DNA from: Catajapyx aquilonaris
Lineage: Eukaryota
Direction: 5' to 3'
NCBI GenBank assembly: GCA_000934665.2
Contig: JYFJ02004120.1
Coordinates: 1-34,598 of the forward strand
DNA length: 34,598 nt
The notes beneath the pieces are model-generated. The model was not told the origin of the DNA and made no database searches. It worked only from the letters and a program-made list of their open reading frames with translations. Within the stretch, counting starts at the first letter, position 1. Every line of letters begins with the position of its first letter. The position numbers were made by a program, and so were the translations under genes. Of the stretch, positions 2,578 through 26,800 are shown in pieces.

Positions 2578-2805
2578 AGCATTTGTTTAAACACATGTGG
2601 ATTGGACTCGAGGTTCTGAAGAATCCAATCAACTATACATGGAGTGATGGTACTCGTGTCATGGATGAGGGAAATCTCCCTTGGGGACCCGGTGAACCCA
2701 ACAGTGATGAAGAGAAGTGCGGAGAAATGACCTACACTGGGCACTTGAACGATAACAGTTGCTCCAATGAAATTAACTTTGCCTGTAAATTAACAGACGT
2801 GACAG
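2578..2805 (+). CDS. CTLD C-half exon C1, unit 1 (EPN..LND)
   Basis: ttttcag|AG...ACAG|gtaaat, 228 nt; HMWIGL..WSDG..GEPNSDEEKC..LNDNSC..NFACK. Confidence 0.9.
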
Positions 2806-5800
2806 GTAAATATGGGTGTTAATACTGATATTTTCATGTCCTTAGAAATGTTTTACATGGATTGGTTCCATTTTTAGGAACATGTCCGCGCAACTGGAAC
2901 ACAATAAACACGAATTGCTACTTCTTTTCGACTGTCAAGCTCAGTTGGAATAAGGCGAATGTAACGTGCAAGAGCAAGGAAGAAAGTGCAGATTTGGTCA
3001 GACTCAGTTACGAAGGGGAGCAGTCTGAACTAGCAAGTAAGTCATTCTTAGACAAAGAATTACCTATGGCTTCAACATAAATAAAAAATCACTGTAATTA
3101 ACCTGGACTGTTTTTGAGGTGAAATGGTTGAATCTGTTTGGATGGCCGTAGAAGCTAACATAGAGACAAATGAGTCAATAATTTGAAAATATGTTAAAAC
3201 TTGAACCAACAAAGTCACAAAGGTTTATTACTTTATCCTGAATGGAATATCATTTTGTCCAATATTTATTCTGATGTACTCTCATTGATGTGCCAGAAAA
3301 CTGTCTTTGTCTATTAGAGCAGATTCCACATTGCAGTAACTTACATTAATTTTTGAACATGTGTTGCCAGTGTTCAATATAGTTCGTTAAAATTGCATAT
3401 TTCAATTTTCAGAGCATATGTATGATCACATGTGGATTGGACTCGAGGTTCTGAAGAATATAATCTACTTTGGATGGAGTGATGGTACTCCAGTGGATGA
3501 GGAAAATCTCCATTGGAAAGAGGGTGAACCCAGCCGGAATGGAGAGGAGTGCGTAGAATTATTCTGGAATGGGAACTTGAACGATATTATGTGCAGCATG
3601 GAATTGAACTTTATCTGCAAATTAACAAACCCAGAGGGTAAATATGAGTGTTAATAATGATATTTTCAGGTCCTTAGAAATGTTTTACATGGAATGGTTC
3701 CATTTTTAGGAGCATGTCCGCCTGACTACTGGAAGACTATAAGTACGAGTTGCTACTACTTTTCAACTGTCAAGCGCAATTGGACAGCTGCAATTACTTA
3801 TTGCAAGAGCATGCAAGAAAGTGCAGATTTGGCCAGTTTCCATTACAAAGAAGAGCAGTCTGAACTAAAAAGTAAGTCATTCTTAGACGAAGTACCTATG
3901 GCTTCAACATAAATAAAAAATCACTGTAATTTACCTGGACTCTTTTCCAGGTATAGTGCTTGACACATTAACCACCTCTGAATATTTTTTTCCCGTTGGA
4001 GACGACGCTGCGTTACCTGGCAACCCCTGCCTGCGGGCAAATTCAAACATCAGCATATGGAGAGTGCTGAGTGTTCTTTTCATTGTTGTCACTGTTTACA
4101 AAGAGAGAGTGACGCAGACACCCCAACGACGGGTCTCAGCCTGCTTACACATCAGTAGCAAGGGATACGCAGGGAAAAACGGGAAAATTATGATGTTAGA
4201 AGCAATCCTCTTTGGGAAAAGGTTCCCCGCTGGACTCAAAGAAAGGTTTCCGTCCACAGCACACGTAATTCCATCCGGCATAGGAGAGCGGGGCACACCC
4301 CTTAATGGGGAAGTAGCCTTGGTCTGGGATTTGGGATTTTTGTTCATAACTAGCTAGCCCATGCCTGTAAACATACATTCCATCACTTTGTTGCATCAAA
4401 ATGACATTACTGAATAAATTACGGCACATGTAAAAGTGCCTTCAAAATTGGCGGGAAAAATGCCCCGGCCGGGTGGTGCCAATCGAAAGGGTACACCGAA
4501 ATGCCTGGTTGACTGCGAGATATGAGGAATTTGACTTTGAATTATCCGCGGACACGACGGAAAGCATTCGCAAGGCGGCTGCAGGCCAGCGAGGTGGAGA
4601 AAGGGGGCCCTCATGTGCTGAATCTGGGTGACAGATAATTCCAACCTGGTGGCATCACTGCCATGTACAAAGCGGCTTGAGCGACCTGGAATAAATACGC
4701 GCCCCGGCCGCTATCTTGCTCACGGAATGGGACGGTTGCTAACAACAGCAAAGCATTTTACGACAATGACGGGGCGCGTTCTATAACACCATTTTTGCGT
4801 TCATTTCACTTCGCGTGACGTCAACATTTTCTAGGCTAACAGTGACGTCACCATTAGCCTACATAAAAACCCCAATTACTCCGGAACTGAAACTGATATC
4901 TTAAAACGGAATATGCCAAAAAAATCCAAAAAATATGGGCGAATTTATTATGTAGTTTCCAAAATGAAGGCTACTTCCCCATTAACATCAGGGGTGCACT
5001 ACTTGAAAGTGCGTCAACTGACCGATTCTTTTGGTTCTTGCGTCTTTTCCCTCGTAAGTCGACACCTCTAAGACGAATGGAGACCATCCCCTGTATATCA
5101 GACATCATGTCAGTCTCACCTATAATTGTCTCCAACCCCTGTACAGTATACGTGATGTCATGTTAGTCCTGTACCTCGTGTCATTCGCGTCATATTCGCG
5201 CCAGGAAGAACTTCCTGGCGCGAATATGATTGGCACGTACTCTTATATGGGGAGGCCATTTTGAAATACGACATCTTATGGGGACAAATTACGAGACAGA
5301 CACGGTTCTGACATACCCCCTGCAGCAAGCAATATGGGGGCAACATTGGGGCAACATTGGGGAAGCCGGCGCAACATAGCCCAATATGGCCGATGTTCAG
5401 CCGTGATGTCCATGGGGACAGACACAGCAGAATATCGGGCCAAGATTGCGCCAACATGGAACGCCAGTGCGGGCTAATATGTGAAACATTGGCCGAACAT
5501 GGAAATCCATGTTCGGCCAATATTTGCTGCCTAGGTTGCAAGCCATGATGGGCCCACATAGGCGACATTGGCCCATCAACACCACCACGCCTACATTGCC
5601 ATGATTAAGCCGCCATTGCGGACATTGCGGACATTGCCAAGAAATTTAGCCATCCATTAGCCGATCTTGCGGATACATCGGCTCCACATAGGCAACATTG
5701 GCCAGTTGCAGCCATGTGGGCGTATGACTGGCAGCTTCCCTCGTCCGGATGGCGCTGCCTGTCGGTGTATTGTTGCAAGTCTTCTCCGATTTATCCCACA

Positions 5801-8800
5801 ACAATGCGAATTAATCTTGGCGATTACCCGTGTGTAAAAGTAGCAGGAAACTCCACTGCATGCGGCTCATTTACCCCCGAGGTACTTCATTGTGACATTA
5901 ATTTGCTCGAGTCGTTCGATGGCAAAGCTTATGGTGCGAGCAGGACAATCCGCTGTATGGAAAGGCGGTCATATAATTACTCTATCTCATACGCTTCTCG
6001 GTCTCTGGCTAAATAAAAGATAAAGGCACCCATTGAGTGGTCCTCTCGGACGAACTCGAGCATTGCGCCATTGCCTGCCAATGTTGGGATATATCGAGAA
6101 AAGTTGCAGCGGGCAACATTGCAGATTGCACCAATGACGGTGGCCAATGATGTCCCAATATGTATTTTCCAACATTTTTTGGCGTTTTTTTTCAGTTCAC
6201 GTGGATAGAGGACACGATCTCAAAGGAACCCAAGTGGAGATTTTCAGGGTCTCAACTCTCAAGCTGCTACCTTCAACCTCCGACCTCCGTGTATTTTCCA
6301 ACATTGGCTCCATGTTGGGTTGCCCATGTTGGGGTTGCCCATATTGGGCCACGTCCGCCTCCCAATGTTGGGATATATCGAGAAAAGTTGCAGCGGGCAA
6401 CATTGCACCAATGATGGTGGGCAATGCTGGCCCATTAATGGTTTCCATGTTGTAGCCAATATTGCCCCAATATAGATTGCTGATGGGGACAGGGCATGGT
6501 CTCCATACGTCTTAGGGGTGGTCTAATTATGCGGAAAAGACACAAAAACCGAAAGGATCAGTCAGTTGACGAACTTTCAATTAGCCCACCCCTGATCTTA
6601 ATTGACAACCCCTCCTCATGGGTGGAATATATTTCGTGTGCTGTGGGCGACAACCTTTCTATGGCTATTTTCTCACGAGGCCACCCTGGACGCGCCTAGG
6701 TGGCACCACCACGTCTTTGCAATTCTGCAAGTGGAGCCTTTCGCACGTGGTGGTTGGCAGTGCTGCCCACGCGCAGCCAGAAATGATTGTGGGGGGCAGG
6801 GTGACTTTCGACGCTCCAGCCTCTGCCAGCTGGCTGCATCGCCACGTGTTTGCATTGAATCATATGAAGCCTTTCACAGGAGACCCGACTTTTCTTACGG
6901 CCAGCTGTGCCGACTAATTTATGCGGCAGAGCTGCCATGGTGTGAAAGTAGCCTTTCAGTCCAGTGATAATTTTCCCAAAGTGGATTGCTTCTAACAGCA
7001 TTATTTTCCCTGTTTTTCCTGCATATTCCTGCAGGTACTGTGTAAGCAGGTAGAGACCCGTCGTTGAGTCGTCCGCGTCGCCCTCCATCTCTGTAAACAG
7101 TGGCAACAATAGAAAGGACACTAAGGACTCTCCATATGCTGATGTTCGAATTGTCCCGCCGGCCAAGGTTGCCAAGAAACACAGTGCCGTTGCCAACGGA
7201 AAAAAAACATTCAGCGACAGCTAATGTGTCCAGCACTGTATGTATAACGGTTGAAGCGATTTGGATGGACATAGAAGCTAACGTAGAGACAAATAAGTCA
7301 ATAATTTGCAAATATATTAAAACTTGAACTAACCAATTCACGAAGGTTTATTGCATTATCCTGTAAAGATTATCATTTTGCCCAATATTTATTCTGATGT
7401 ACTCTCATTGATGTGTCAGGAAACTGTCTTTGTCTATTGGAGAAGATTCCGTATTACAATAACTGACATTAATTTTTGAACATGGGTTGCCGGTGTTCAA
7501 TACATTCCTTTGAATTGCATATTTCAATTTTCAGAACATTTGTTTGAACACTTTTGGATTGGACTCGAGGTTCTCAAACCAATCTACTTTGGATGGAGTG
7601 ATGGTACTCCAGTGGATGAGGAAAATCTCCATTGGCTGACGCTTGAACCCAGCGGGGGTGGAGAGGAGTGCGTAGAAATATACAAGAAAGGGGAATTGAA
7701 CGATGCTGGGTGCTCCTTGCCATTGAACTTTATCTGCAAATTAACAAACCCAAACGGTAAATATGAGTGTTAATAATGATATTTTCAGGTCCTTAGAAAT
7801 GTTTTACATGGATTGGTTCCATTTTTAGGAACATGTCCGCCTGACTGGAAGACTATAAGAATGAGTTGCTACTACTTTTCAACTGACAAGCTCAATTGGG
7901 AGGATGCGAAGGAAAGGTGCAAGACCAAGCTGCAAGGAAGTGCAGATTTGGTCAGTTTCCGTTACAAAGAAGAGCAGTCTGAACTAAAAAGTAAGTCATT
8001 CTTAGACAAAGTACCTATGGCTTCAACATAAATAAAAAATCACTGTAATTTACCTGGACTGTTTTTGAGGTGTAGTGCTTGACACATTAGCCACCTCTGA
8101 ATGTTTTCTTCCCCGTTGGAGACGACGCTGCGTTACCTGGCAACCCCTGCCGGCAGGGCAATTCAAACATCAGCATATGGAGGGTGCTTAGTGTTCTTTC
8201 CATTGTCGTCACTGTTTACAAAGAGAGAGTGATGCAGACACCCCAACGACGGGTCCCAGCCTGCTTACACATCAGTAGCAAGGGATACGCAGGGAAAAAC
8301 GGGAAAATTATGATGTTAGAAGCAATCCACTTTGGGAAAAGGTTCCCCGCTGGACTCAAAGAAAGGTTTCCGTCCACAGCACACGTAATTCCATCCGGCA
8401 TAGGAGAGCGGGGCACACCCCTTAATTAACATCAGGGGTGCACTACTTGAAAGTGCGTCAACTGACCGATTCTTTCTTGTTTTTGTGTCTTTTCCCTCGT
8501 AAGTCGACACCTCTAAGACGAATGGAGACCATGCCCTGTATGTCAGACACCGCGTCTGTCTCACCTATTATCGTGTCCAACCTGTGTACAGGGTACGGGA
8601 TATCATGTTAGTCCTATACACTATACACTATACACTATGCAACGCAACATAACTATGCAACACCTCCCCCAGTAGAAACAAACTTATGGTACGTAGTCTT
8701 CCAAAGCTGTGGGAAGCTGCTGGGCCCTCTGCGGTCGTCACTCCGGCCGCGGTGCAGACACGGGACTCCCGTCTGTGAACTCTGGATCTGCCTTTGGTAT

Positions 8801-11800
8801 CCTAGGGCGCATATGGTCCACATGCCGACGCATCTCCTGTCTGGCAGATGTAACAGTACTGTTGGTCCTGGGGCCTTCAACTGCAGACACCACTCCAGGG
8901 ATCCATGACTCCGGTTTCTTGATGAAATCTTGCACGTAAACAGCGTATCCCGGTTCGAAGTGTGGGTCCTGTGACGTTTAAGAATGATACTTTCTCTCTA
9001 GTCTGATGGTCATTTCCTCAGACAAATCCGGATACAATCGGTCGAGGGCAGTGTGAATCCTCCGACCCATTAACATCTCCGATGGCGACCGTCCTGTAGA
9101 TGATGTTGGTGTCGTGTGGTGTGCTAGCAAAAATCGAGCAACTTTCATCTTAATGTCACCTTCACTCATCTTCGCCAGCGCCTCCTTTGTAGTCTGTACC
9201 ATTCTTTCTGCTTGTCCATTAGAAGCTGGATGATACGGTGGCACTAGAATTTGACGAATGACATTCTTCTCTGCAAACTCTTGCATCTCTCGCGAAGCAA
9301 ATGTTGCACCGTTGTCGGTAACCATAACATCGGGCAGACCGTGCGTTGCAAACAGTCTACGTAGCTCAATGATGGTGGATGTAGCGGACATCGAGCGCAT
9401 GGGCAGCACCTCCAGCCACTTGGAGTACACGTCCACTACAATCAAATAAACGACACCGTTGTGTGGTCCCGCGAAGTCCATGTGTAAGCGGGACCATGGT
9501 TTCTTGGGGTACTCCCAAGGATGTACTGGGGCTTTTGGTGGCAAGTGCCGTGTAGCTTGACACTTGTCACAAAGGTGAACGAATTGTTCCACTTCTTTGT
9601 CCAGTGGACGCCACCACAGATAGCTACGTGCTGATGCCTTTATGTGGCTTATGCCCGGGTGTCCCGCATGAAGTAACGTCAATGTGTCCTTCCTGGCTTG
9701 AGCAGGGATGACAACGCGAGTACCCCATAGCACGCACCCATTGTGAACAGACAATTCAGATGACCTTGTCCAGTACGGTAGCAGCTCCAAGTCATCAGGT
9801 TTGCTTGTAGGCCATCCCGAGAGACAGTAGCGCAGAACCTTATTCAAAGTTTGGTCCTTTGTGGTAAGTGCGGCAATGGATTTCGCACCCAGGGGAGACT
9901 GCGGAACGTATTCCAGTAGCAAGACTTCCATAGGGTCAGGTACAGCACAGTCAGGAACCTTCAGAGGTAATCTGCTGAGCCCATCTGCGTGTCCAATCTT
10001 CTCTCCTGGTCGGTGTACTTGCGTATAATTGTAGAACGCCAGCATTAGGATCCAACTCAACATTCTGGGGGAAACTACTGTTGGAATGGGTTTGGCAGAC
10101 TGCAGTATAGTCCCAGCAATGGCTTGTGGTCAGTAACAAGAGTGAACGTACGTCCAGCTAAGTATCTGTGGAAATGTTTCACCCCGTACACCAGTGCGAG
10201 AGCCTCCCTGTCTAACTGAGAAAAGTTTCTTTCACTCCCATGTAATGTGCGGGAAGCAAAAGCAATGGGGGCCTCGTGACCATCTGGAAGTAGGTGAGAA
10301 AGTGCCGACCCTACCCCGTACGGTGAAGCGTCGCAAGCTAGCAGCAAGGGTTTCTTTTCGTCGTAATGCACAAGTACCTCCAGCACTCTTTCCTTTGCCG
10401 CCTCGAACACCTTCTGGTGGTCCTTGGACCAATTCCACTTCGCCTTCTCATCTAGGAGTCGACATAATGGCTCCAACAGGGTAGCTCTATCCTTGAAGAA
10501 TGTCCCGCAAAAATTTAACAGACCCAAGAATGAGCGCAGTTCCTTCACGTTTGTAGGTTAAGGTGCTGCTCTGATGGCTTCTACCTTGTCCTTGGCCTGG
10601 TGCGTCCCAGCAGCATCTATCTGATAGCCCAGGAAACGAACAGTCATCCACTCCAAAAGCACATTTCGTAGCGTTGACCTTCAGTCCAGCATCTTGCAAG
10701 AAGTGTTTGTCCCAGTCCATTTACCACCACCAAAGGCAGCGTAGTTTTCTTCCCCTGGTGCTTTACCTTCATGTCTGCAACACCTTTCATTTGTATAGTG
10801 TTTGATGACCCCACGCCTGTAGCACCACAGAGGCACAGACGTAGGACGTAGTGTGGGTGGATTAACTGGCCACAACCGTTGAAAAGTGTCCGTTCCAATT
10901 ATGGACACATCTGCACCGGAATCGACTATCATGTCGACTTGTCTACCCTGCAGCAACAAACGCGTCTTGCATTTAGGTGTGGTTTGAGTTGTTCCCACCT
11001 GGTAAATATCGTACATCTTTCCATCCACGGAGAGGGTTGGCACTTCATTTGTCTCCACCAAAGTTGGCTTTGATCCTTCTGCATTTGTTGTTCTCTTGGA
11101 CATGGATGAAGCAGTCATCACGTCTTACCAGCAGACTTCTTCTTTAGCAAACAAACTTTCTCCATGTGGCCCAGTTTCTTGCAGAAGTTGCATGTAATGC
11201 CCTTCCTTTTGATGTGGCCTTGATGATTGCCTTGTGATGTGGGCTGCCGCAGCGGTAGCACACAATCTTGGTATAGCTTCGACCCTGCACACCTCTTTGA
11301 CACGCAGAGAAGCAGAATCCTGCTCTGCTGTTTCTACAGCAGCAGCAATTTTGTGTGCCATGTCGAAAGTGAGAGTAGTGTCCTCCAGCAACTTACGCTG
11401 AATCTTCTCATCTGCAATACCCACCACAAGCTGATCTCTCAGTCGATCACTAATTATGTCCGAGAAGTTGCAGTGTTCCGTCAGTCTACGTAAGTCGTTC
11501 ACATAATCACTAACAGATTCTCCTAGCTGCTGAAGTCGACGGTGAAACTTGCATCGCTGCACAATCTCTGACGGTGTGGGGTTGAAGTGGACTCCTACTG
11601 CAGCTCTGACATCATTGTAAGACATGTCAGACAGTTTCTTCGGAGCTACCACTGCACGTATGGTATGGAAAGTACAGAAAGTACAGAACTTGTCAGTGTC
11701 GTGCTTACGTTGGGGCGTAACAAGCTACGGCCTTATTTTTATTGTTGCTACGCTCAAGAGCACATCCTGGAGGCCCGGCGCAGTGGCCACATGACAGCAG

Positions 11801-14800
11801 GATTCTGTGGGGTGATCATGGGTCACACTACTTACGCCCTCATGTTCACATCTACCCCTTGGCACATGGACGCTGAGGGATATGTGAATATCCTTGAGAA
11901 TGACCTGCTCCCAGAACTAGAGGAATGATATCCAGATGAGCAAAAGATCCCATTTGTTCATGACAAGGCCGGGATCCAGGCTGACGACGTGTTTCCTTGA
12001 TGACCAGAGCAAGATTTCCCCGATGAAGTGGCCGTCCTACTCCCCTCACCTCAACCCCATAGAAAACCTTTGGGGTATGATGGTCAGGGAGTGGGACAAT
12101 CGCAATGAGCGCCGGGATGACCTGCTCCGACAGCATTGCAGGGAGGTCTGGGAATCCGTCGGCAACTGCCCTTGGATCCTGGGCAACTTCTTGTCCAGCA
12201 TGCCTCAGAGGCTGGCTGATGTGGTTACTAGTAAAGGAGGTCACAGCAAATATTAAAACTTCCTTGTTCTTGTTCGTTGATGTTCCCAGTGTTGTTTCCT
12301 TTTGCGTGTAGATTACCAATATGGATTGTTATTTGTTTCCAAAGATTTCTTAACTTTATTGTTACATTATTGTTACAAAAGTATGATTGTGGTTATATCA
12401 AGGCTGACCCACCAATTATTTTGTAGTGGCCATAAAATTTCATGGATTCTATTTGGAACCTTCGTCAGTGTCATTTTCATATTATTATAATATTCTTTTA
12501 TTTTTATTTTTTATTATGTACCCCGTTGTGGGCCTATATTATTAATATTCAAATATATGTTAATTATCATGAATGGCCCTTTGAGTTGTTTATTATTATA
12601 GTTTTCAATTTGTTTTTGGCTATGCCAATCTTGACGCAGCCCGCCAGCGCCGCCGCCGCTTCCACAGTGCATCGGCATTTGTAGATAAATAATGCCAGGG
12701 TGCAAATCGTCTGTAGAACATGCTCGGAAAATCGTGCATCAATGAACTGCGAACCCTGGATGACCCTGGGATTAAAATAAGTGGAAAGAGGTAGCCAGAC
12801 CCAAACAGAACATCAGGCCACCCATATTTGTAACAAAAATGCTTCTAAATGTCCCCAGAGTAGAAAGGAGTCCTTTCGGAACATCATTTCCCAATGATCC
12901 TCCATGAGAAGCGCTGGTATATCAGCCCCGATACACCAGTGGCACATCCAGTGGATGGACCCACTTCCAGCATGCTACTGTGACCGAGCGGTGTAATAAG
13001 GATACGGAAGTAAGAGACTAATGCTTCAATTTAATGGTCAAATGTGTACAGGACAGTAAAGTGAGAGAGAGAAGGGACGACCAATCCCCCAGGATATTCT
13101 CCTGGGGAAAAGGCCTCGAACAGAGGGTTGTACCGGTATATATACAGGCCAGGAGGCGCAAAGCCTGCTGGGAGAAATGGATAACAGAATCAACATGATG
13201 TAATGGGCAACGTATAAATGGATGTATCCAGAAAACGGTGACATACCCCAACGCCAAGCTTGAAACATAAACAATGAAAAATGGTCAGGGTGTTGAAACA
13301 TGTGCCAAACACGGAGACAAAAAAATCCACAAAGGAATCAAAAAGGGCCCGGTCAAAGTTCACAGACGGCCATAAAAAAAAAAAGAAATCTCCGTCAACA
13401 AAAAAAGGACACTAAAACTTGATAATGAGGGATGATGATGATGATGATGATGATTCCAGATGTCACTCAGAAGGCAGCAGTCAATTTAGGAAACCGAAGA
13501 AGGGGCTCCAAATGAACGTGTGGTCCAGGAACAGGTGTCCCTCTGCTTCCTCTTCTTGTAGGAGCGACGATGACGTCCATAGTCTCGACCCGATGGCGGG
13601 AGTTTCATTTCCTCGAACAGTTGAAAAGGCATGAAGAAGGTGTGTAGCCTCGGGAAGTCCGCCTCAGAGTAGATGATTCCGGAAAGGTACAGGCATTGGA
13701 AATCAAGATGACACCCCAGGGCAGCCATGAAGTCTGCAGCCAGGATCACAGGAAGTACGCCTCTACGCACCACGAGGAACGTCTTCTGAAATGTTATGTT
13801 CCCCATGGTGAGGGTGAGCGTTGTCCTCCCATAAGGTCGAACAAGGTGAACGTCGGCCATGCGCAACTTCGTTGGAGGGGCTGGTTCCAACTGAGGTCGG
13901 GAGTGACGAGGAATGGAATCCCACGCAGCTATGGAGACCATGGAAGTTACGGCTCCGCTGTCCAGTAGAGCGGTATGTGGAATTCCATGAACAAGTACGG
14001 CGATGGTGGCAGCAGTAATCATCGACGTATCTGGTTCTTCGATTCGGAAGGAGGCCATCCTGACGACTTGCACGTAATGCAGCTCGTAGGCGTAAGGATG
14101 CTTCACGTAAGGGTGCGGCTCACGCTGCTACTCGTACTTCTGCTCGTACTGTTGTTCGTACTTCTTCTGCTGCTCAGAGGAAAATGCGTAAGTTAGAGTG
14201 GCACAAGAAGGTTCAGAAATGAACAACACATGGCTGGCGGGTCTTGATTATATTCTGGGAGAGTGCAATGCATGATGGTTGGAACGTTCTTCAATATTGC
14301 GTCACACACACTGGGAGGTCAGTCCAGTCGTATGGAACACTTGACCCATGGGGTCTCCACAGCGCACTACTACGGGGTAGTCCAAAATCCTCCACCCCCT
14401 CCCACCTTACAAGGGGGCCAGGAACAATGGCACCAGAAAAAAATGTGGATCCCCAATTTACATGAAAAACATCCTCAGCACCTGGTTCATACAACCAGGA
14501 ATATGGGGGTTGTCGAATTCTCACGACACCCAATTATGACACACACACATGCACACCCACACACAGCCAATGTAGGTGGTGTAATACTTCACGGTGCGGA
14601 AGGCTGTCTTCATCCTCACGGGTAGGGTCTACAATTAGACGGAAAATGGCAAGTCTCTTGTCCGACCCACCGTGATGGAAACTTCCACAACGATATATAG
14701 GCAAAAGGGGCACATGCCGTAGTAGAATTTAGTCACATGGGCCTCCACACTGCCTCACCACCCCGGCCCCTGGGTGACGTATTCCGTACACACCAACGGA

Positions 14801-17800
14801 ATCGGGTGGCCCATAACTCCCTCTCTCTCAAATGGCAATGGATGTTAATGACTGTCCACAAAGGTAAAGTAGGGTAGGTAGGGATAAAAGGGGAAAAACA
14901 CGGACCATAAACTCGCATGAGAAGGTATTCCTTCAACAATGGCTGCTCAAATGGCGCGCAAAACGACTAATGGCCCGAAAGGGGAGAACTAACATTTGCA
15001 AGAAACATAATGCCAAAAGTGCATACAGGTTCATGCGGGATGTCAACAGTGACCAGTGTTGGATGCAACTTACAGGGTCATGTGACAGAGGAACAGGGAC
15101 TGGTGTGAGACTAAAACACCAAAGCGATCCAAAAAAAGAAAAGGAGGGAGAAACTCCCACGGGACAGGGAAAATCGAAGAAGTGATAATATGACCGTGGA
15201 CATGCTTACAAAGCAAACCCCCCTGTAGGATCAAGTAGGGTAGGACAGAGCACAAAGCCCCAAAGGGTACAACACGTGACCAGACTAATTAAAAGCAAGA
15301 GGCGTTGAAAACAAACAAGCCCGTAATTCAAATCGCACTTCCGACGCCACGTATGTGACCGAGCGGTGTAATAAGGATACGGAAGTAAGAGACTAATGCT
15401 TCAATTTAATGGTCAAATGTGTACAGGACAGTAAAGTGAGAGAGAGAAGGGACGACCAATCCCCCAGGATATTCTCCTGGGGAAAAGGCCTCGAACAGAG
15501 GGTTGTACCGGTATATATACAGGCCAGGAGGCGCAAAGCCTGCTGGGAGAAATGGATAACAGAATCAACATGATGTAATGGGCAACGTATAAATGGATGT
15601 ATCCAGAAAACGGTGACACTACCATATCGAGCGAGTGTGGCCACCATAGTGTGTTGATCCATCTTGAATTAGGCAAACAAAGCTGTTTTGTCACCTGTTG
15701 GTCCCCTATACAAATATTTTGGTTAACTACTAGACGTTTTCCGTCATGTAATTAGGAAATGTGTGGCGCAAAATGTGAAGTTCGTTAGGTCTATAAAAAC
15801 TAGTCAATGATGACTGCAGTGTTGTTGATGCCAGCCTGCCTGTCAATCTAGAACTTATAAAGTATTATTTTATTGCAGTGTGGATGAAATTGCTGATAAA
15901 CGAGTGGGTTCTATTTCATAAATTACGCAGACTCTATAAACTAGAAATAAGTTGCACGAATAAGTAGCGGAGACAGCTCTCAAGCGAGCCAGACTGTACG
16001 GCCACGTGTCCATGGGACCGCGGCCGCAGCTGCGCCCGGAGAGCTGAGTGTTGTGGATTCTGGAACATCCCCAAATAAACATATCCGTAACCTGGCAGAG
16101 CCCAGGATTACCAACACATAAACACAAAAACACATCAACAATCGCGACATTACTTTTGCGATTAATAGTACTCTCATTGATGTGTCAGAAAACTGTCTTT
16201 GTCTCGTACAGAACATTTCATATTACAGTAACTTACGTTAATTTTGGAACAAGTGTTTCCTGTGTTCAATACATTCCTTTGAATTGCATAATTCAATTTT
16301 CAGAGCATTTGTTTGAACACTTTTGGATTGGACTCGAGGTTCTGAAACCTTTCAAGTATGGATGGAGTGATGGTACTCAACTGGATGAGGAAAATCTCCA
16401 TTGGTATCCCGGTCAACCCAGCGGATATGGAAAGGAGTGCGTAGAAGTATTGGACAATGGGGAATTGTACGATGCTATGTGCAACTCGGAATTTAACTTC
16501 ATCTGCAAATTAACAAACCCAAAGGGTAAATATGAGTGTTAATAATGACATTTTCATGTCCGCAGAAATGTCTTACATGGATTGGTTCTATTTTTAGGAG
16601 CATGTCTGCCTGAATGGAAGACTATAAATATGAGTTGCTACTACTTTTCAACTGACAAGCGCAATTGGACGGATGCGAAGGAAAGGTGCAAGATCTTGAA
16701 TGAAAGAGCGGATTTGGTCAGTTTCAGTTACAAAGGGGAGCAGGCTGAGATAGCAAGTAAGTCATTCTTAGACAAAGAATTATGCATGACTTCAACGTAA
16801 ATAAAAAATTACTGCAATTAACCTGGACTCTTTTTCAGGTATAATGGCCGAAGCAATTTGGATGGACATAGAAGTTAACGTAGAGACAAATAAGTCCATA
16901 ATTTGCAAATATATTAAAACTGTCGAACCTACGCAGGTACGGGTTCGAACTTTAAGTTAGGTAGAGGTATTTGCGTCGGATATCAGCGGAAATAAATAAT
17001 GTCGGGGAATGATTTCAAATAACCTATTTAATGCAGCCACGTAAGGCTCTTTGTTATATCATCACTTTACAGTTCACTATTACACACATAATAAGCTTCA
17101 TACATTCATACATAGTTCACAAGTCCAATAATACTTCTTTTCCACACATTATGACATCACCAACAACTTCTACCACTCTGCTCATTACAAAATGGAACGA
17201 CTACATTTACTTATACATCCGTATACCATAATCATGCACCATACACTTCAACCTATGGTTGCATGAAAAGTAAAATAAATGCAACTGGAAATTTTGCCAC
17301 ATGGCTGGCTTACCTGACTAGTTGTCTGATACTGCTTCTCTGATGCTTCTACTGCTTCTCTCTTACTCTGCGTCTCTTACTGACTGATTCTATGACCCGG
17401 ACCTGCTTTTATAGTGCCCGGTTTGGGGTGGGGTTTGTACCACGTGAGTGTCATTTTGGGGGGTTTTCCCACTAATATTGTCCTGCTTCCTGCATCCTCA
17501 GATGGACTTGTTATATTGATGCGGTACGTTTCTTGCACCTCACACCGCGCTCGGACTCTAATGGATCTTTTGAATGGCTTTCTGGCACCAGGGAGTCTGT
17601 TGCTCGTGCTGCCTAGCCCACTCTCTAGCTGTTTATTTAGACGCGTGTTTTCAATAAACTGTGATAATTTGGGGTTCTTAAGTGTGTGACAAATGCCAAT
17701 TAATATCGTAATTAAGTCTCTTGTTATGCCGTAGGCGGCATGACAAAACTTGAACTAGCAAAGTCACAAAGGTTTATCGCATTATCCTGTATGGAATATC

Positions 17801-20800
17801 ATTTTGTCCAATATTTATTCTGATGTACTCTCATTGATGTGTCAGAAACTGTCGTTGTCTATTAGAGAAGATTCCATGTTACAGTAACTTACATTAATTT
17901 TGGAACATGTGATTCCGGTGTTCAATACATTCCTTTGAATTGCATATTTCAATTTTCAGAGCATTTGTATGGTCGCATGTGGATTGGACTCAAGTTTCTG
18001 AGGAAACCAATCAAGTATGGATGGACTGATGGTACTCACGTGGATGAGCGAAATCTCCGTTGGAAATGGGGGGAACCCAGCGGATATGGAGAGAACTGCA
18101 TAGAAATGCACAAAATTGGGCAAATAAGAACTGCTCAGTGCAACAAGGAAGTGAACTTTATTTGCAAATTAACGAACCCAAACGGTAAATATGAGTGTTA
18201 ATAATGATATTTTCAGGTCCTTAGAAATGTTTTACATGGATTGGTTCCATTTTTAGGAGCATGTCCGACTGACTGGAAGACTCTAAATACGAGTTGCTAC
18301 TATTTTTCAACTGACAAGCGCAGTTGGGAGGATGCGAAGGAAAGGTGCAAGATCTTGAATGAAAGGGCGGATTTGGTCAGTTTACATCCCAGAGTGGAGT
18401 GGAATGAAACAACTAGTAAGTGATTCTTAGACAATGAATTACGTACGACTTCAACATAAATAAAAAATTACTGAAATTTACATGGACTGTTTTTCAGCCG
18501 TTTTGATGGACATAGAAGCTAATGTAGAGACAAATGAGTCAGTAATTTGCAAATATATATTAAAACTTGAACCAACAAAGTCACAGAGGTTTATTGCATT
18601 ATCCTCTATGGTATATCATTTTGTCCCATATTGATTCTGTTGTATTCTCATTGATGTGTCAGAAATACTGTCTTTGTCTATAAAGGTCTGAACTCATATC
18701 GACTTGAAACTACGACTTGTGCGTAAAAGTCATACTTTTGCGTCTGCGTCTCCATGGCCTTGTTTGTTTGGGAAAGAGGGCTGTTTCCATATCGACTTGT
18801 GCGTCAAAGTCGAACTTATGAGTGTTCGAATCCATCCCGCTTGCCGGCTGCGCATGCACATGCAATTCCATCCCCGAGGGCCCATGCGCAGTATGCCGTG
18901 CAGAACGATAATCGAACAGTGCCAACAATCGAATGTCAACAATTACATCGACCACGTTCCAGTTTCGTACCTCTAGCGGCATGATGTCAAAATGGCGGAG
19001 AAATGCTATCATTCGCGGTAGTCACGTTTTACCTGCCCCGACCTGACCATTGTGCATGGGCTCTGCTTGTCTGCATCTGGTGGTCTGGCCCCCGAGCAGA
19101 TCATCCTGAGATTTTTTTAAAAGTGAGGAGTGACCTGCCCTTCCCTTTCCGTTTGTCGGAAGTCAATTGGACTCCTGGCAGCCTGCTGCTGCTTGAGCGA
19201 ATTTTGAGTTGATTGCGACTTGCTCAATGCTCATTACTACCTGCCCAATTACCAAGGAGATTTCTAACTTCACGTTTAAAGATTGCCAACCCCTCATCAA
19301 ACCATGGCTGCTTCGACTTTCAGACATGATCATCGTTCATAGTTTTCGGCTTGAAAATGCACCCAAACTCTTCAAGCAGGTCACGCGCCAACAACTGAAA
19401 TTTTGAGGAGTGAAGAAGGATTACTCTTTGGCTATTCGCTTTTCATTTGATTGTTTTTTTAAATGTTTAATGTAACTCTCACAGGTAAGGACACTATTAT
19501 GTAACACTTTTCTTGTCCATGGAATTTCATCGTTATTTCCATGTTCCTTAGGTCACTCGTAACTCATAATTATGAGCATTCTTTTTGTGTGAACTTAATT
19601 TTTGAACTCGGGGTAGTCAAACAACCTTATTTCTCGAAATAGTTGGGCCATTCTGAATCAAGAGAGCGCAGATATGTTGCTCGACCATCTCGTATTTCGC
19701 AGGAAAAAAAATCACGGCAGTACAGAACTATGACATAACGCTGCATATCAAGTTTCAGCCATATCGAATGGTTGCATCGAATTGTTGCATATCGATCGAC
19801 CTGGGGCCCACACGCACCAGGGTGCCAACAGTTGCGCGCGGCGAATGGCAACAACGGAAAACGACTGTCAACTAATGTCAACAAGAGGCCTACACGGACG
19901 CAGAAACGGCGTTCCAACGCACGCACAAGTCGTAGTTTCAAGTCGATATGAGTTTAGACCTTTAGAGAAGATTCCATTTTAGAGTACTTTAATTTTTGAC
20001 CATGTGTTCCTGGTGTTCAATACATTCCGTTGAATTGCATATTTCAATTTTCAGAGCATATGACCAGTGATACCATGTGGATTGGACTCTTTATCCGGCC
20101 AAAGCCACTCTATTATGAGTGGAGTGATACTACTCCAGCGATAGAGAGTCATTTCACTTGGCACGGTAACACACCCACGTATAATGGCGGGTATTGCGTA
20201 GAACTTATCCAAATTATCACTACCGGTAACGATAAAGGGAGAGTGCGCTACACTAAGTGCACCGAGACACATAACTTTGCCTGCAAATTACCAAAGGTGG
20301 AAGGTAAATATTGGTGTTAATAATGATGTTCTCATGTCCCTAGAAATGTTTTACATGGATTGGTTCCATTTTTAGGAGAATGTCTGCCTGACTGGTGGAG
20401 GCGAGGAACGAGTTGCTACTATTTTTCGACTGTCAAACTCAGTTGGACAAAGGCGGAGAAGTATTGCCGCGAGGAAAAAGGGGCACATTTGGCCAGCTTC
20501 CATGACGAAGGGGATCAGTCTGCGCTAGCAGGTAAGTCATTCTCAGACAAAGAATTACATACGACTTCAACATAAATAAATAATTACTGTAAAAAACCTG
20601 GAACGTTTTTCAGGTATAATGGTTGCATCTGTTTGGATGGACATAGAAGCTAACGTAGAGACTAATAAGTCAATAATTTGCAAATATATTAAAACTTGAA
20701 CTAGCAAAGTCACAAAGGTTTATTACATTATCCTGTATGGAATATCATTTTGTCCAATATTTATTCTGATGTACTCTCATTGACATGTCAGAAAACTGTG

Positions 20801-23800
20801 TTTGTCTATTAGAGATTATTCCATATTACAGTAATTTAATTTTAGAAGAAGTGTTTCCGCTGTTCAATACATTCCGTTGAATTTATTGCATGTTTCAATT
20901 TTTAGAGCATATGGTTTGGCGCGTGTGGATTGGACTCCATGTGCTGGACAAGCCAATCAAATATAGATGGACTGATTCTACTCAAGTGGAAGAGAGTCAT
21001 CTCAAATGGGAGAAGGACGAAGAACCCAAGTATGCTAAAGGGTATTGCGTAGAACTAACTGAAGGAAGTGGGAGATTGAACTACACTAAATGCACCGAGA
21101 CATATAACTTTGCCTGCGAACTACCAAACGTGACTGGTAAATATTGGTGTTATTAATGATGTTTTCAGGTCCTTAGAAATGTTTTACATGGATTTGTTCC
21201 AGTTTCACAAGCATGTCCGCGTGACTGGAGGAGGATAGAAAAGAATTGCTACTACTTTTCGACTGTCAAGCTCAGTTGGACAAAGGCGGAGGAGTATTGC
21301 CGCCAGGAAAAAGGGGCAGATTTGGTCCATTTTCGTTACAAAGAGCAGCAGTCTGAACTAGCAAGTAAGTCATTCTTAGACAAAGAATTACGTACGACTT
21401 CAACATAAATAAAAAATTACTGTAATTTACCTGGACTGTTTTTCAGGTAAAACGGTTGAACCCGATTGGATGGCCATAGAAGCTAACTAAGAGACAGATA
21501 ACTCAATAATTTGCAAATATATTAAAACTTGAACTAACAAAGTCGCAAAGGTTTATTTATTGCTTTATCCTGTATGGAATATAATTTGGTCCAATATTTA
21601 TTCTGATGTACTCTCATTGATGTAGACAACTGTCTATTACAGAAGATTCCATATTACAGCACTTAAATTTTGTCAACAAGTGTTTCCGCTGTTCAATACA
21701 TTCCCTTGAATTTATTGCATGTTTCAATATTTTCAGAGCGTTTGTATTATCGCACGTGGATTGGACTGCGTGCCCTGGACAAGCCAATCAAATATAGATG
21801 GACTGATTCTACTAAAGTGGAAGAGAGTCATCTCACTTGGTTGAAGGCCGAACCCACGTATGCTAAAGGGTATTGCGTAGAACTAATCGATGTTGAAGAA
21901 GATGATATTGGGAAATTGCAGTACAGTAGTTGCGACAAGGAACGTGCCTTTGCCTGCGAATTACCAAACGTGACAGGTACAATTAATGGTGTTAATAATG
22001 ATGTTTCATGTCCTTAGAAATGTTTTTTTTTTTTTTTTAATTTACCCCGTGAATGACCTGTTTGGTCTTTAGGGGGTGGTGGATTACCACCATTGGTATT
22101 TTTGGAGCGTGTTAAGATGAAATCTTATTAGTGTACTCCAGGGTTGGTAGGAGGGGATGTGCAAAGTGCATGTGCGCTGTCGTTAATTGGTCATTTTGTG
22201 AACTCCCCCGGGTGGCTTAGTCTATCGGAAATTGCCACCCGAAACGAAGTCAGAGATGGCCCAACTCTGCACGAAAGAAGGTGGGAACCCCGGGTGGGGA
22301 TTGAACCCGGGACCTTAACTTCCGTGGGCGCGCGCGTTACCGCGGCGCCACTCCGTCTCCCTGTGTCCTTAGAAATGTTTTACATGGATTGGTTCATTTT
22401 TAGGAGAATGTCTGCTTGACTGGTGGAGGATAAAAACGAGTTGCTACTATTTTTCGATTGACAAGCGCAGTTGGAAAATGGCGGAGGAGTATTGCCGCAG
22501 GGAAAAAGGGGCAGATTTGGTCCATTTCAGTTACAAAGGGGAGCAGCTTGCGCTATCAAGTAAGTCATTCTTAGACAAAGAATTACGTATGACTTCTACA
22601 TAAATAAAAAATTACTGTAATTTTTCTGGACTCTTTTTCAGGTAAAATTATTGAAAGCATTTGGATGGACATAGAAGCTAGCATAGAGACAAATAAGTCA
22701 ATAATTTTAAAATATATTAAAACTTGAACTAACAAAGTCAAGATGGTTTATTGCATTATCCTGTACGGAATATAATCTTGTCCAATATTTATTTAGATGT
22801 GCTAGGGGCCTTCATAAAGTTAGTACCTTTGGGTTGAAGGAAATGAGAGAAACGGTTCAAATTTCGCACAAGTATTAGTCTTCTCTCTATATTAACCCTG
22901 CAAAGCTACACATTTTCCCCAGTGATTCAGAGCTGTATCATTGACACATTATTGTAGAAGTCGACACTTTGTGCTTGAAAATTGTTTTCAACCTCTGTGA
23001 TCACCCCCTAGCGGCTTTCAAAATGCTTCCCACGCAGTGGTTGCTTCAAGTGGCAAAAGAGGATGAAGTTTCCAGGGGCGAGGCCCGGGAATATGTCTGA
23101 TGGGACAGAATGTTGTACCCCTAACGGACCAGCAAGTGCCACAGTTGCATGGGCAGAATGAGCAGATGTGTTGTCGTGCACACCTTGCGTCACCATTCCT
23201 CGTCTGTTCCGCTTGATCTTGTGGTGAAGCTTTTACAGGAGATCTTGATAATGCTGCCCGCGATGGTCTGACCTTATCATGTCTAATGAGTCATGATAAA
23301 TCCACATGAGTTTTTAAAAAAAACACTGAGCATAACCTCCCCAGATGATAGCTGCATTCTGACCTTCTTCGGGGGTGGAGAGTTTTGAGTGTTTCCATTG
23401 CTTGTGCTGTAATTTGGTCTCTAGGTTGTAGTGGTACACGCAACATTCGTCCATGATGATGAGTCAGTTGAAAAAATAGCCATCTTCAGAGAGGAACATC
23501 GCCAACATATTCTTAGCCTTAGTACCGAGGTTGACAACTTTTTTCAAGAGCAAAGTGTCGACTTTGGCATTAATGGTGTTCCACAAGTCGTGCATTGCTG
23601 GGGAAAGTGTGTGGCTTTGCAGGGTTAATATAGAGAGAAGGACATTCAACCCAAGGGGCGAACTTTATGAACGCCCCTCATACTCTCATTGATGTGTCAG
23701 AAAACTGTCTTTGTCTATTAGCGAAGATTCCATATCACAGTAATTTAATTTTTCAACAAGTGTTTCCGCTGTTCAATACATTCCTTTGAATTTATTGCAT

Positions 23801-26800
23801 GTTTCAATTTTCAGAGCGTTTGTATTGGCGCACGTGGATTGGACTGTATATCCTGGACAAGCCAATCAAATATAATTGGACTGATTCTACTCACGTGGAA
23901 GAGAGTCATCTCACTTGGCTCTATGAGGTCGAACCCACGTTTGCTAAAGGGTATTGCGTAGAACTAACTGAAGGAAGTGGGAGATTGAACTACACTAAAT
24001 GCACCGAGACACATAACTTTGCCTGCGAAGTACCAAACGTGACTGGTAAATATTGGTGTTATTAATGATGTTTTCAGGTCCTTAGAAATGTTTTACATGG
24101 ATTTGTTCCAGTTTCACAAGCATGTCCACCTGACTGGAGGTGGATAGAAACGAATTGCTACTACTTTTCGACTGTCAAGCTCAGTTGGATAGAGGCGGAG
24201 AAGTATTGCCGCCAGGAAAAAGGGGCAGATTTGGTCCATTTCCGTTCCAAAGAGCAGCAGTCTGAACTAGCAAGTAAGTCATTCTTAGACAAAGAATTAC
24301 GTACGACTTCAACATAAATAAAAAATTACTGAAATTTACCAGGACTGTTTTCCAGGTAAAACTGTTGAAAGCATTTGGATGGACATAAAAGCTAGCATAG
24401 AGACAAATAAGTCAATAATGTGCAAACACAGGGTGATTCTCTCGAATCGAAACCCAAACATTCCCCAATAACTTTTTAACTATGGTATGGTGCCCGATGA
24501 AAATTGACTTGTACTTACCTTGCACCATGCCAAACAAGGTCTGACTAAAGAATATACCAAAAGTGGTCCCCTCCAGAATCCAAGAATTTTTTAATGCGAG
24601 TCTGCATATTGCGGAAGATTCCTGCAGATGTGGACACTGACTTGTCAGGAGCGAAACACTTGCTTGGCGAGAGGGCATTTCAAGACCACTGGAACAGTCC
24701 AATTCGTTTTGGGGGATGATGTTTTGTTTTGTTTTTTTCTCGCGGAGTTTGTTGAAGGGCTGTGTATACAAAAATAACCCTCGAACAATTGATGCTCTCA
24801 ACAACAGCTTGCGGCGTCCTGTGGGCAGGAGATTAATGCCATCCCTGCCGCCACATCTGCAGGAGTCTTCGGCAATATGCAGACTTGCATTAAAAAATTA
24901 TTTGATGCTGGAGGGGACCACTTTTGGTATGTTCTTTAGTCAGACCTTGTTTGACATGGTACAAGGTAAGTACATGTCAATTTCATCGGGAACCATACCA
25001 TAGTTAAAAAGTTATTGAGGAATGTTTGGGTTGCCATTCTGGAGAATCACCCTGCATATTAAAACTTAAACTAGCAAAGTCACAAAGGTTTATCGCATTA
25101 TCCTGTATGGAATATCATTTGGTCCAATATTTATTCTGATGTACTCTCATTGATGTGTCAGAAAACTGTCGTTGTCTAATAGAGAAGATTCCACATTACA
25201 GCACTTTAATTTTTGAACAAATGTTACCGCTGTTCAATACATTCCGTTGAATTTATTCCATATTTCAATTTCCAGCGCGTTTGTATTGGCACATGTGGAT
25301 TGGACTCTATATCCTGGACAAGCCAATCAAATATATATGGACTGATACTACTAATCCAGTGGAAGAGACTCATGTCACTTGGGATGGAGTTGCACCCACG
25401 TATGCTGAAGGGAATTGCGTGGAACTAGTCCCACATGAAACTGACGAAAAGGGGAGATTGAAGTACACTAACTGCAATGAGCGATTTAACTTTGCCTGCG
25501 AACTACCAAACGTGACTGGTAAATATTGGTGTTAATAATGATGTTTTCAGGTCCTTAGAAATGTATTACATGGATTGGTTCCAGTTCCTCAAACATGTCT
25601 GCCTGACTGGAGAAGGATTGGAACGAGTTGCTACTACTTTTCGACCGACCCGGACACGTGGACAAACGCGAAGGAGTATTGCCTGGGAAAAAGTGCAGCT
25701 ATGGTCAATTTCACTGGAAAAGGGCAGCAGTCTGAACTAGCAAGTAAGTCATTCTTAGACAAAGAATTTTGTATGACTTCAACGTAAATTAAAAATTACT
25801 GAAATTTACCTGGACTGTTTTTCAGGTAAAATGGTTGAATCCGTTTGCTAACATAGAAACAAATAAGTCAATAATTTGCAAATATATTAAAACTTGAACG
25901 AACCAATTCTTTATCGCATTGTCTTGTGTAGAATATCATTTTGCCCAATATTTATTCTGATGTACTCTCATTGATGTGTCAGAAAACTGTCGTTGTCCAT
26001 TAGAGAAGATTCCATATTACAGCACTTTAATTTTTGAACATGTGTTTTTCTGGTGTTCCGTACATTCCGTTCAATTCCATATTTTAATTTTCAGAGCATT
26101 TGTTTGATCACATGTGGATTGGGCTCTATATGCTGGACAGCCCAATCAAATATAATTGGACTGATTCTACTGTAGTGGAAGAGAGTCATCTCACTTTTGA
26201 TCCGCCTGTAACCATGTATGATGAAGACAAGTGCATAGAACTAGCGATAACAGGGAATTTGATGTACACTGAATGCAGCAATGAATTTAACTTTGCCTGC
26301 AAATTAACAACCGTGACTGGTAAGTGTTGGTGTTAATAATGATATTTTCGGGTCCGTAGTAGAAATGTTTTACATGGATTGGTTACATTTTTAGGAGCAT
26401 GTCCGCCCGACTGGAAGAGGAGACTATTCAGTTGCTTCTACTTTTCAAATGTCAAGCTCAATTGGACAGCTTCGATTAGTTATTGCAAGGGCTTGCACGA
26501 AAATGCAGATTTGGCCAGTTTCAGTGATGAATTGGATCAGTCTTATGTTGCAAGTAAGTCATTCTTGGACAAAGACTTACGTAAATAAACCGTGTAAAAT
26601 TATTGTAATTAACTTGACTATTTTTCAGGTGATATGGTTGATGGCGTTTGGATAGGCCTTCATTACAATTCTTCTCGTGATGAATGGATTTGGTCGGACG
26701 GCAGTACAAATGACTACCACATGTGGAATACAAAGGAGCCCAATTGCTTGGACACCGACAAGTGTGCCAAGTTACTTTTCGAAAAAGTGTGGAGTGACCT

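Follow-up and report, generated by a model that had tools for sequence, protein, structure and literature searches.

A putatively chimeric gene of Catajapyx aquilonaris with an array of split C-type lectin exons that diverge faster than their introns

The 34,598-nt contig JYFJ02004120.1 of Catajapyx aquilonaris (GenBank assembly GCA_000934665.2) was analyzed whole and is called the window here (C2226; the other contigs named below belong to the same 285.6-Mb assembly). One 7tm_6 match above the cut-off suggests the genome of an insect or another arthropod. The window carries 11 repeat units, between 2578 and 26553 on the forward strand, whose exons encode halves of C-type lectin-like domains (CTLDs). 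This array is very probably the middle of one chimeric gene, within which a captured lectin cassette was amplified and positively selected. Sequence comparison within the assembly documents the excess divergence of the lectin exons, its nonsynonymous nature, the donor of the cassette, the host gene and the remnant of a fusion; from these we infer that a single spliced protein of about 20 CTLDs is anchored at the surface.

All exons of the units are open and in phase 1-1. Exon A (222–249 nt in units 1–11) encodes the C-terminal half of a CTLD, from just before the WIGL motif to the last cysteine, and after a short intron of 66–75 nt exon B (156–162 nt) encodes the N-terminal half of the next, so that one domain arises when exon B of a unit is spliced to exon A of the following unit. 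The predicted splice of the 35 live exons of the window gives 2,589 codons without a stop, and PF00059 scored above its cut-off in all exons tested (two of type A and the exon C that ends the array).

Divergence of exons and introns

Over the 55 pairs of units 1–11, the mean difference per site was 0.313 in exon A, 0.266 in exon B and 0.119 in the introns, and both the total and the nonsynonymous distance of exon A exceeded the intron distance in every pair (55/55). A sequence-only reading of the window had claimed that the ligand-binding exons outrun the surrounding introns, which these distances bear out, with exon B nearly as divergent as exon A. The excess is nonsynonymous: pN was 0.327 for exon A and 0.271 for exon B, codon positions 1 and 2 were more divergent than position 3 in both exons, and the mean amino-acid identity of the CTLDs was 51%. 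The Nei-Gojobori pS was 0.25, twice the intron value. At four-fold degenerate sites, counted in codons whose first two bases agree, the difference was 0.158 (confidence interval 0.104–0.214), not significantly above the 0.118 of the introns (P = 0.095).

Several details of the earlier description could be compared with the alignment. Its ten motif pairs from the binding loops are correct for units 1–10 (unit 11 has VTM/LMY), and its near-invariant Cys/WIGL core reappears among the 14 invariant columns of exon A in units 1–11, which include W-I-G-L, a Trp, an Asp, three Cys and a Phe. All exon A lengths are multiples of three, in keeping with the in-frame indels it described, but its upper length of 258 nt belongs to unit 12, outside the range it covered. 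Its four intron blocks said to recur almost unchanged in every unit do not: with up to four substitutions allowed they gave 9, 9, 5 and 11 matches over the 11 units, of which 5, 4, 2 and 3 were exact.

Among the 44 exons A and 44 exons B aligned, neither a stop nor a frameshift was found. The set excludes six units in which an exon was truncated, the donor call failed, or an N or internal duplication was present (C1804 unit 2, C4927 unit 1, C3688 and both C9615 units; none from the window), and codon columns with more than half gaps were removed.

Positive selection and its location

Codon models (M0, M1a, M2a, M7, M8 and M8a) and a recombination test of the pairwise homoplasy index (PHI) type were run in our own implementation. 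The trees of exon A, exon B and the introns reject one another (approximately unbiased test, p ≤ 0.025) and whole units carry a recombination signal (PHI-type p = 0.003); none was detected within exon A (p = 0.30) or exon B (p = 0.18), the screen that the earlier reading had called for, which makes an analysis exon by exon fair. In exon A (74 codons) M0 gave an omega of 2.03, and the likelihood-ratio test (LRT) of M7 against M8 gave 76, with 29% of sites at omega 4.4; the corresponding values for exon B (52 codons) were 1.76 and 25. Across the site models the LRT was 76–81 for exon A and 25 for exon B. The M1a–M2a comparison remained significant when the intron tree or F1x4 was used and when double and triple substitutions were allowed (multi-hit LRT 41.0 for exon A and 13.9 for exon B), and six further fits were robust. 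The multi-hit term itself was strongly favored and lowered the omega of exon A from 2.03 to 1.54. Tree-free estimates from five disjoint paralogue pairs were 2.96 for exon A (p = 8e-6) and 2.17 for exon B (p = 0.006), and control exons outside the array, predicted to be in the same gene, were under purifying selection (ADAM exons, omega 0.11–0.13; Cys-rich exons, 0.28–0.44). Positive selection on the lectin exons, which had been proposed from the sequence alone, is thus supported by the site models and more weakly by the tree-free pair tests considered further below.

Sites were mapped by alignment. At a cut-off of 0.95, 16 sequences yielded 15 selected columns in exon A and 9 in exon B. The face around Ca2+ site 2 holds 8 of the 15 (just before the EPN position, at the end of beta3, in the hairpin and at the middle WND residue); the remaining sites either border WIGL, the WSDG turn and the beta4-beta5 link or belong to the N-half. 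The rate scale of the site-2 face was 1.46, against 0.75 and 0.79 for the other regions, and under the multi-hit model it was the only region of exon A above 1 (omega 2.56, p = 0.033). A pooled region test over pairs reused sequences across pairs and was set aside in favor of the 16-sequence analysis. The proposal that selection acts on the binding surface is only partly right: the site-2 face is indeed the fastest, but it holds only 8 of 15 sites in exon A, and nine more lie in exon B. Selection appears to span both domain halves and to reach beyond the sugar site, and so wide a surface would fit large or protein-like partners better than the retuning of a monosaccharide pocket.

Ca2+ site 2 requires EPN or QPD, an additional Glu and the N and D of a WND-type motif, according to the available part of one account (PMC7618208). 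All five ligands are present in unit 1 only, four of five in units 2 and 3, and at most three in units 4–11; units 6–11 have a Tyr at the site-2 Asp position, and the set of unit 4 is Q-S-K-Y-D. By these residues the array units mostly look unlike a Ca2+-dependent sugar-binding carbohydrate-recognition domain, and our commitment is that units 4–11 putatively bind mostly without Ca2+. Loss of the canonical site had been placed in units 5–11, where the set is indeed incomplete, but it begins at unit 4.

Haplotypes

Over long stretches, shared insertions included, contigs C5322 and C10297 are 94–96% identical to the window, which suggests that they represent the alternative haplotype or else a copy made very recently; identity is lower (80–89%) in the divergent units and in some insertions. 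The window has 11 array units and C5322 has 8. Between units paired by position (the pairing of units 6–7 is uncertain), exons differ at 314 of 3066 sites and introns at 101 of 2583, and four-fold sites (14/295) do not differ significantly from the introns (p = 0.44). In unit 2, 24% of the exon A residues differ with 0 of 31 four-fold sites changed, and the end units 1 and 11 are near-identical. Several near-identical units of the second locus described below stand on separate contigs (C5841, C8544, C11436 and C9292); either this locus has expanded very recently or the assembly contains more than two haplotypes.

Donor gene and fusion scar

The cassette has a recognizable donor. On the minus strand of C2146, at about 9000–35300, a gene encodes 14 CTLDs followed by Sushi and trypsin exons, the trypsin domain with AAHC and GDSGG motifs present; it looks like a modular serine protease with an unusual wealth of lectin domains. 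The first four of its lectin exons, introns included, match 28097–29723 of the window at 79% identity, where a complete two-CTLD cassette occupies 28477–29659 (D 28477–28644, A 28882–29139, B 29212–29367 and C 29450–29659, forward strand). Its fifth lectin exon is the counterpart of dead exon E (26903–27061, forward strand), the N-half of donor CTLD3, which has lost both acceptor and donor, contains an in-frame stop and serves as an internal neutral control. The features of phase 1-1 cassette shuffling thus occur together: a donor with the same exons and introns, an empty host site (described below) and matching phases.

In the inter-unit intron, the nhmmer profiles for the beginning of exon C and for the last part of exon D lie directly side by side, which identifies a 51-nt fusion (for example, 20614–20664 on the forward strand) whose donor GT has become AT and which later acquired frameshifts; it is common to both loci. 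This C/D deletion appears to have created the one-domain chimeric unit. Most of the dead remnants kept the acceptor AG with a GT, derived from the start of exon C, directly after it, and a remnant of this kind could act as a recursive splice point. A 42-nt in-frame mini-exon at 32172–32213 looks like a second C/D fusion with its GT donor kept; its equivalent at the other locus (C4927 unit q3) has 36 nt, and both would lengthen the alpha2-beta2 loop.

The history of the array was probably the following. A phase 1-1 cassette D-A-B-C, carrying two CTLDs, entered a phase-1 intron of the host together with the now-dead exon E. Unequal exchange then fused the first part of exon C with the last part of exon D, and loss of the donor site from this fusion left a one-domain repeat unit made of the N-half of CTLD2 and the C-half of CTLD1. 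Unequal crossing-over amplified this unit, with intronic exchange reshuffling the domain halves; positive selection replaces amino acids across the surface of the domain, most rapidly on the site-2 face, and the introns drift near the neutral rate.

The host, an ADAM-like protein without a zinc motif

The host was found via its Cys-rich exon. Contig C395 carries a prodomain-like exon, metalloprotease-like exons, a short disintegrin start and two Cys-rich exons split by a short phase-1 intron without lectin exons; a stretch of C1325 is likewise without lectin matches. At the second locus, C1804 holds the head, lectin cassettes in the same phase-1 intron and the tail, all on one contig. Host exon e5 matches ADAM10 (6bdz, E = 1e-5), Met-turn region included, and exon e6 gave a weak PF00200 match below the cut-off; a Pfam search of seven host exons left six without a match. 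The zinc motif of an active ADAM is HExxHxxGxxH. In 9 of the 10 family matches read (one C528 match left out), YYMARAMG or a similar sequence stands in its place, and by this motif the host would not be an active ADAM10/17 sheddase. The family includes at least ten ADAM10-like exons that lack the zinc motif, on C395, C1325, C528, C382, C4455, C3688, C2534 and C1804. The Cys-rich exon had no match in Pfam, Atlas or longer-protein searches. A profile of the ADAM-like prodomain had none among longer proteins and six weak ones among representatives, of which three named bacterial repeat proteins were taken as noise and the other three are unnamed short proteins.

At the window's locus, Cys-rich exon 2 (33324–34598, forward strand, phase 1) is cut by the contig end, and its paralogue ends in a hydrophobic tail resembling a glycosylphosphatidylinositol (GPI) signal. 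A pattern like that of GPI signals, with a small-residue omega site, a spacer and a hydrophobic C-terminus and no cytoplasmic part, was seen by eye in six family tails, with a best 15-residue hydropathy of 1.05–2.16 in the four that were scored. Contig C3688 carries the head, Cys-rich exon 1 and the first cassette, and overlaps C9615 at 99% over 398 nt; the end of C9615 and the window's start align back to back on a sister copy of a retroelement. Together, this overlap and the retroelement link give 20 CTLDs at the window's locus. The start of C2146 contains a Cys-rich tail whose similarity to the paralogue (88.7%) is of the right order for this locus; no overlap connects it to the window, and donor and host may be tail-to-tail neighbors. 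Between the donor gene and that tail, at about 3000–8400 of C2146, the open reading frames (ORFs) suggest two ionotropic-receptor-like sets. The host would thus comprise a zinc-less ADAM10-like head, Cys-rich exons 1 and 2 with the phase-1 intron between them, and a GPI-like tail, and the ADAM head and Cys-rich rods would carry a long lectin-fold chain at the cell surface.

Alternative explanations

The sequence-only reading had offered a second explanation, that conversion among units homogenized the introns and left the exons with an older, ordinary divergence, and the pS of 0.25 first suggested the same to us. Exchange between units is real, as the conflicting trees and the whole-unit signal indicate. 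We nevertheless dropped homogenization on the four-fold sites, the donor distances, the ADAM-half control and the CpG counts, regard it as most improbable and consider it largely refuted as the main cause: array introns differ by 0.114 among themselves, more than they do from the donor introns (0.095), dead exon E is only 0.10–0.13 from the donor, and dN > dS would be left unexplained. The elevated dS is gene-wide, as shown by the non-repeated, single-copy ADAM half, where dS between the two loci is 0.27–0.34 and introns differ by 0.095, and by the 102 of 179 four-fold differences that touch CpG. Relaxed or decaying lectin exons, in which exon-specific hypermutation (CpG, multi-nucleotide events) mimics selection, would agree with the strongly favored multi-hit term and the drop in omega that it brings, with the higher G+C of the exons (0.44–0.46 against 0.30 in introns), with the divergence of the 51-nt dead remnant and with the loss of a Cys or Trp in some paralogue domains. 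We think this improbable, as relaxation yields an omega of at most 1 and not a class at 3–4, the Cys/Trp core is invariant in the array, and the exons aligned lack the stops and frameshifts that the remnants have; exon E, itself of lectin-exon origin, evolves like the introns, the clustering of adjacent differences is 1.32 in exons, no higher than the 1.58 of introns, and all seven insertions are intronic (P = 0.014 under random placement). The cassettes might instead be separate small lectin genes nested in an intron of the ADAM-like gene, the joins of the gene being predicted ones and the signal-peptide exon of the lectin-bearing paralogue not having been located. This, too, has little probability: the 420 nt upstream of 11 D exons contain no conserved signal-peptide exon (a hydrophobic ORF at about 31100, preceding exon D, was considered as such and is not conserved across the 11 copies), all junctions are in phase 1, exon C is not followed by a stop, and strand and order are the same at both loci.

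A number of results weigh against a positively selected array within one gene. Splicing is predicted, and for the window's locus both head and tail are found on other contigs, of which that with the tail is connected by similarity only. In line with homogenization, unit 4 and unit 3 of C5322 differ at 6 of 27 four-fold sites and at 14 of 290 intron sites, the maximum-likelihood dS is 1.1–1.9 times the intron tree (tree length 0.8–1.3, above 0.69), four-fold sites are 0.217 from the donor, and the dead 51-nt remnant differs by 0.199 among 6 units. Under the multi-hit model, the exon A omega of the paralogue pairs falls to 1.89 (p = 0.065). Eight haplotype pairs, again tree-free, gave 1.43 for exon A (p = 0.09; 1.07 under the multi-hit model) and 1.40 for exon B (p = 0.25), and single-pair tests of exons A–D against paralogue or donor were all non-significant. 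It should be noted that the codon code is our own, with naive Bayes sites, scaled M0 branches and 11–16 sequences, and that loop columns beside indels are possibly misaligned. As to function, the results favor neither an immune nor a reproductive role.

Possible function and related systems

The exon excess points to an arms race with a partner. We tentatively place first, at a little under even chances, a putative variable surface that would recognize microbes or parasites or serve as a decoy for them, given domains that come from a modular-serine-protease-type gene and strong haplotype differences. The same selection with a reproductive driver, a candidate recognition protein of the sperm or egg surface, comes second and is less likely, although dead ADAMs act on mammalian sperm surfaces and oyster bindin has split lectin repeats in tandem that are positively selected, recombine in their introns and vary in number (available parts of PMC9114714 and PMC5712786). 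The GPI-like tail and the strong haplotype difference would fit it as well. Against it, the host is ADAM10/17-like, which we take to be a different branch from the sperm ADAMs, and the lectin domains derive from a gene of modular-serine-protease type, a kind that occurs in insect immune cascades. Half-domain exons that are all in phase 1-1 allow intronic recombination and exon skipping to join any N-half to a later C-half. It is conceivable, if unlikely, that the product is a candidate dead-ADAM receptor of about 20 CTLDs, germline-variable and combinatorial, whose hybrid domains would bind non-sugar targets and form repertoires that differ between haplotypes and perhaps between single transcripts.

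Exons outrunning introns are a known signature, seen also in PLA2 genes, and here the history behind it can be read in a single genome that holds the donor gene, the empty host, the fusion scar, a dead-exon neutral control, two loci and two haplotypes. The case separates positive selection from intron homogenization, which is usually hard. If expressed as predicted, the gene would be a candidate variable receptor for immunity or fertilization and a natural library of CTLD surfaces.

Oyster bindin, as far as the accessible text describes it (PMC5712786), has intron-split tandem lectin domains of F-type fold, 1–5 in number, with positive selection near the binding pocket, canonical sugar ligands lost in some repeats, intronic recombination and variable repeat number. 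The array shares an omega > 1 class (weaker in tree-free pairs), intronic reshuffling and repeat-number variation, but its fold is C-type, its domains number about 20, they sit inside a dead ADAM/Cys-rich protein, and selection covers both domain halves. The snake venom families MP, SP, CTLP and PLA2 show KA/KS > 1 and, as here, dN > dS among recent duplicates, C-type-lectin-like proteins included (portion seen of PMC6062510). In the window, by contrast, the repeats lie within one predicted gene of an arthropod-type genome, with no sign of a venom role. Mannose-receptor-type proteins (MRC1/MRC2, DEC-205, PLA2R) are the best sequence matches of exon A. In their CTLD chains, few domains keep Ca2+ site 2, and the family combines a ricin-like Cys-rich domain, FNII, 8–10 CTLDs and a transmembrane segment. 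Membership was rejected, with neither a ricin-like nor an FNII domain seen and with flanks that are ADAM-like and orphan Cys-rich exons; the domains here are also young (by the identity given above), chimeric and positively selected.

The prodomain-like and metalloprotease-like exons and the disintegrin start recall ADAM10/ADAM17 and the dead mammalian ADAM1a, 2, 3 and 6 (PMC9114714, in its available part), whereas in the host the zinc motif is erased, the disintegrin truncated, a GPI-like tail stands in place of a cytoplasmic domain, and the lectin chain divides a region of orphan Cys-rich repeats that is about 1,000 residues long. With its recognition modules, Sushi and trypsin, the donor resembles the insect modular serine proteases (ModSP/HP14/MSP). 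These usually have LDLa repeats, in place of which the donor carries its 14 CTLDs; the window gene took the first two CTLDs and no protease. The pattern of zonadhesin is similar, to judge from the available part of its description (PMC9275260). The array belongs to none of bindin, the venom families, the sperm ADAMs or zonadhesin, and its full architecture was found neither in the literature, mostly from non-subscription journals, nor in protein searches, which is weak evidence of absence.

Units and insertions of the window

All units lie on the forward strand. Unit 1 (2578–3036) consists of exon A at 2578–2805, with the full E-N-E-N-D site-2 set and a PF00059 match at E = 9.7e-9, a 72-nt intron and exon B at 2878–3036. 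Unit 2 (3413–3871; exon A 3413–3637, exon B 3710–3871) and unit 3 (7535–7990; 7535–7756 and 7829–7990) both have EPS/LND, and unit 3 is without a counterpart in C5322. The next three are unit 4 (16304–16756; 16304–16525, QPS/LYD, and 16598–16756), unit 5 (17960–18415; 17960–18184, EPS/IRT, and 18257–18415) and unit 6 (20055–20531; 20055–20303, TPT/VRY, and 20376–20531). The last 11 codons of exon B in unit 5 (18380–18415) contain about nine replacements at unchanged length, a burst absent from the other units. Exon B has lost its ancestral acceptor in units 7, 9 and 10, where an in-frame acceptor is predicted 6 nt upstream: unit 7 spans 20906–21364 (20906–21136 and 21203–21364), unit 9 spans 23815–24273 (23815–24045 and 24112–24273) and unit 10 spans 25276–25743 (25276–25518 and 25585–25743). 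Unit 8 (21737–22559; 21737–21976 and 22404–22559) has a 0.34-kb insertion in its short intron, and unit 11 (26095–26553; 26095–26319 and 26395–26553) is followed by exon C (26629–26847), the C-half of donor CTLD2 (PF00059, E = 3.1e-10). Downstream, a three-CTLD cassette occupies 31227–33200, with D 31227–31394, A 31629–31850, B 31926–32087, the mini-exon with its intact GT, A 32458–32688, B 32755–32910 and C 32994–33200. At the second locus, an exon B of C1804 (15844–16017) carries a 21-nt in-frame tandem duplication.

The seven insertions lie between or within units, at 3952–7273, 8080–16168, 16921–17745, 18681–19990, 22026–22365, 22803–23681 and 24426–25056. Those at 8080–16168 and 3952–7273 are nested mobile elements with gag/pol fragments of long terminal repeat (LTR) type, classed by eye, and several are absent from C5322; a DDE-transposase-like ORF (about 11700–12250, also by eye) and a direct repeat (about 12980–13250 and 15350–15620) were noted in the same region. 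The end of an LTR retroelement, its class read from ORFs, covers 1–1809 on the minus strand, in the intron before unit 1.

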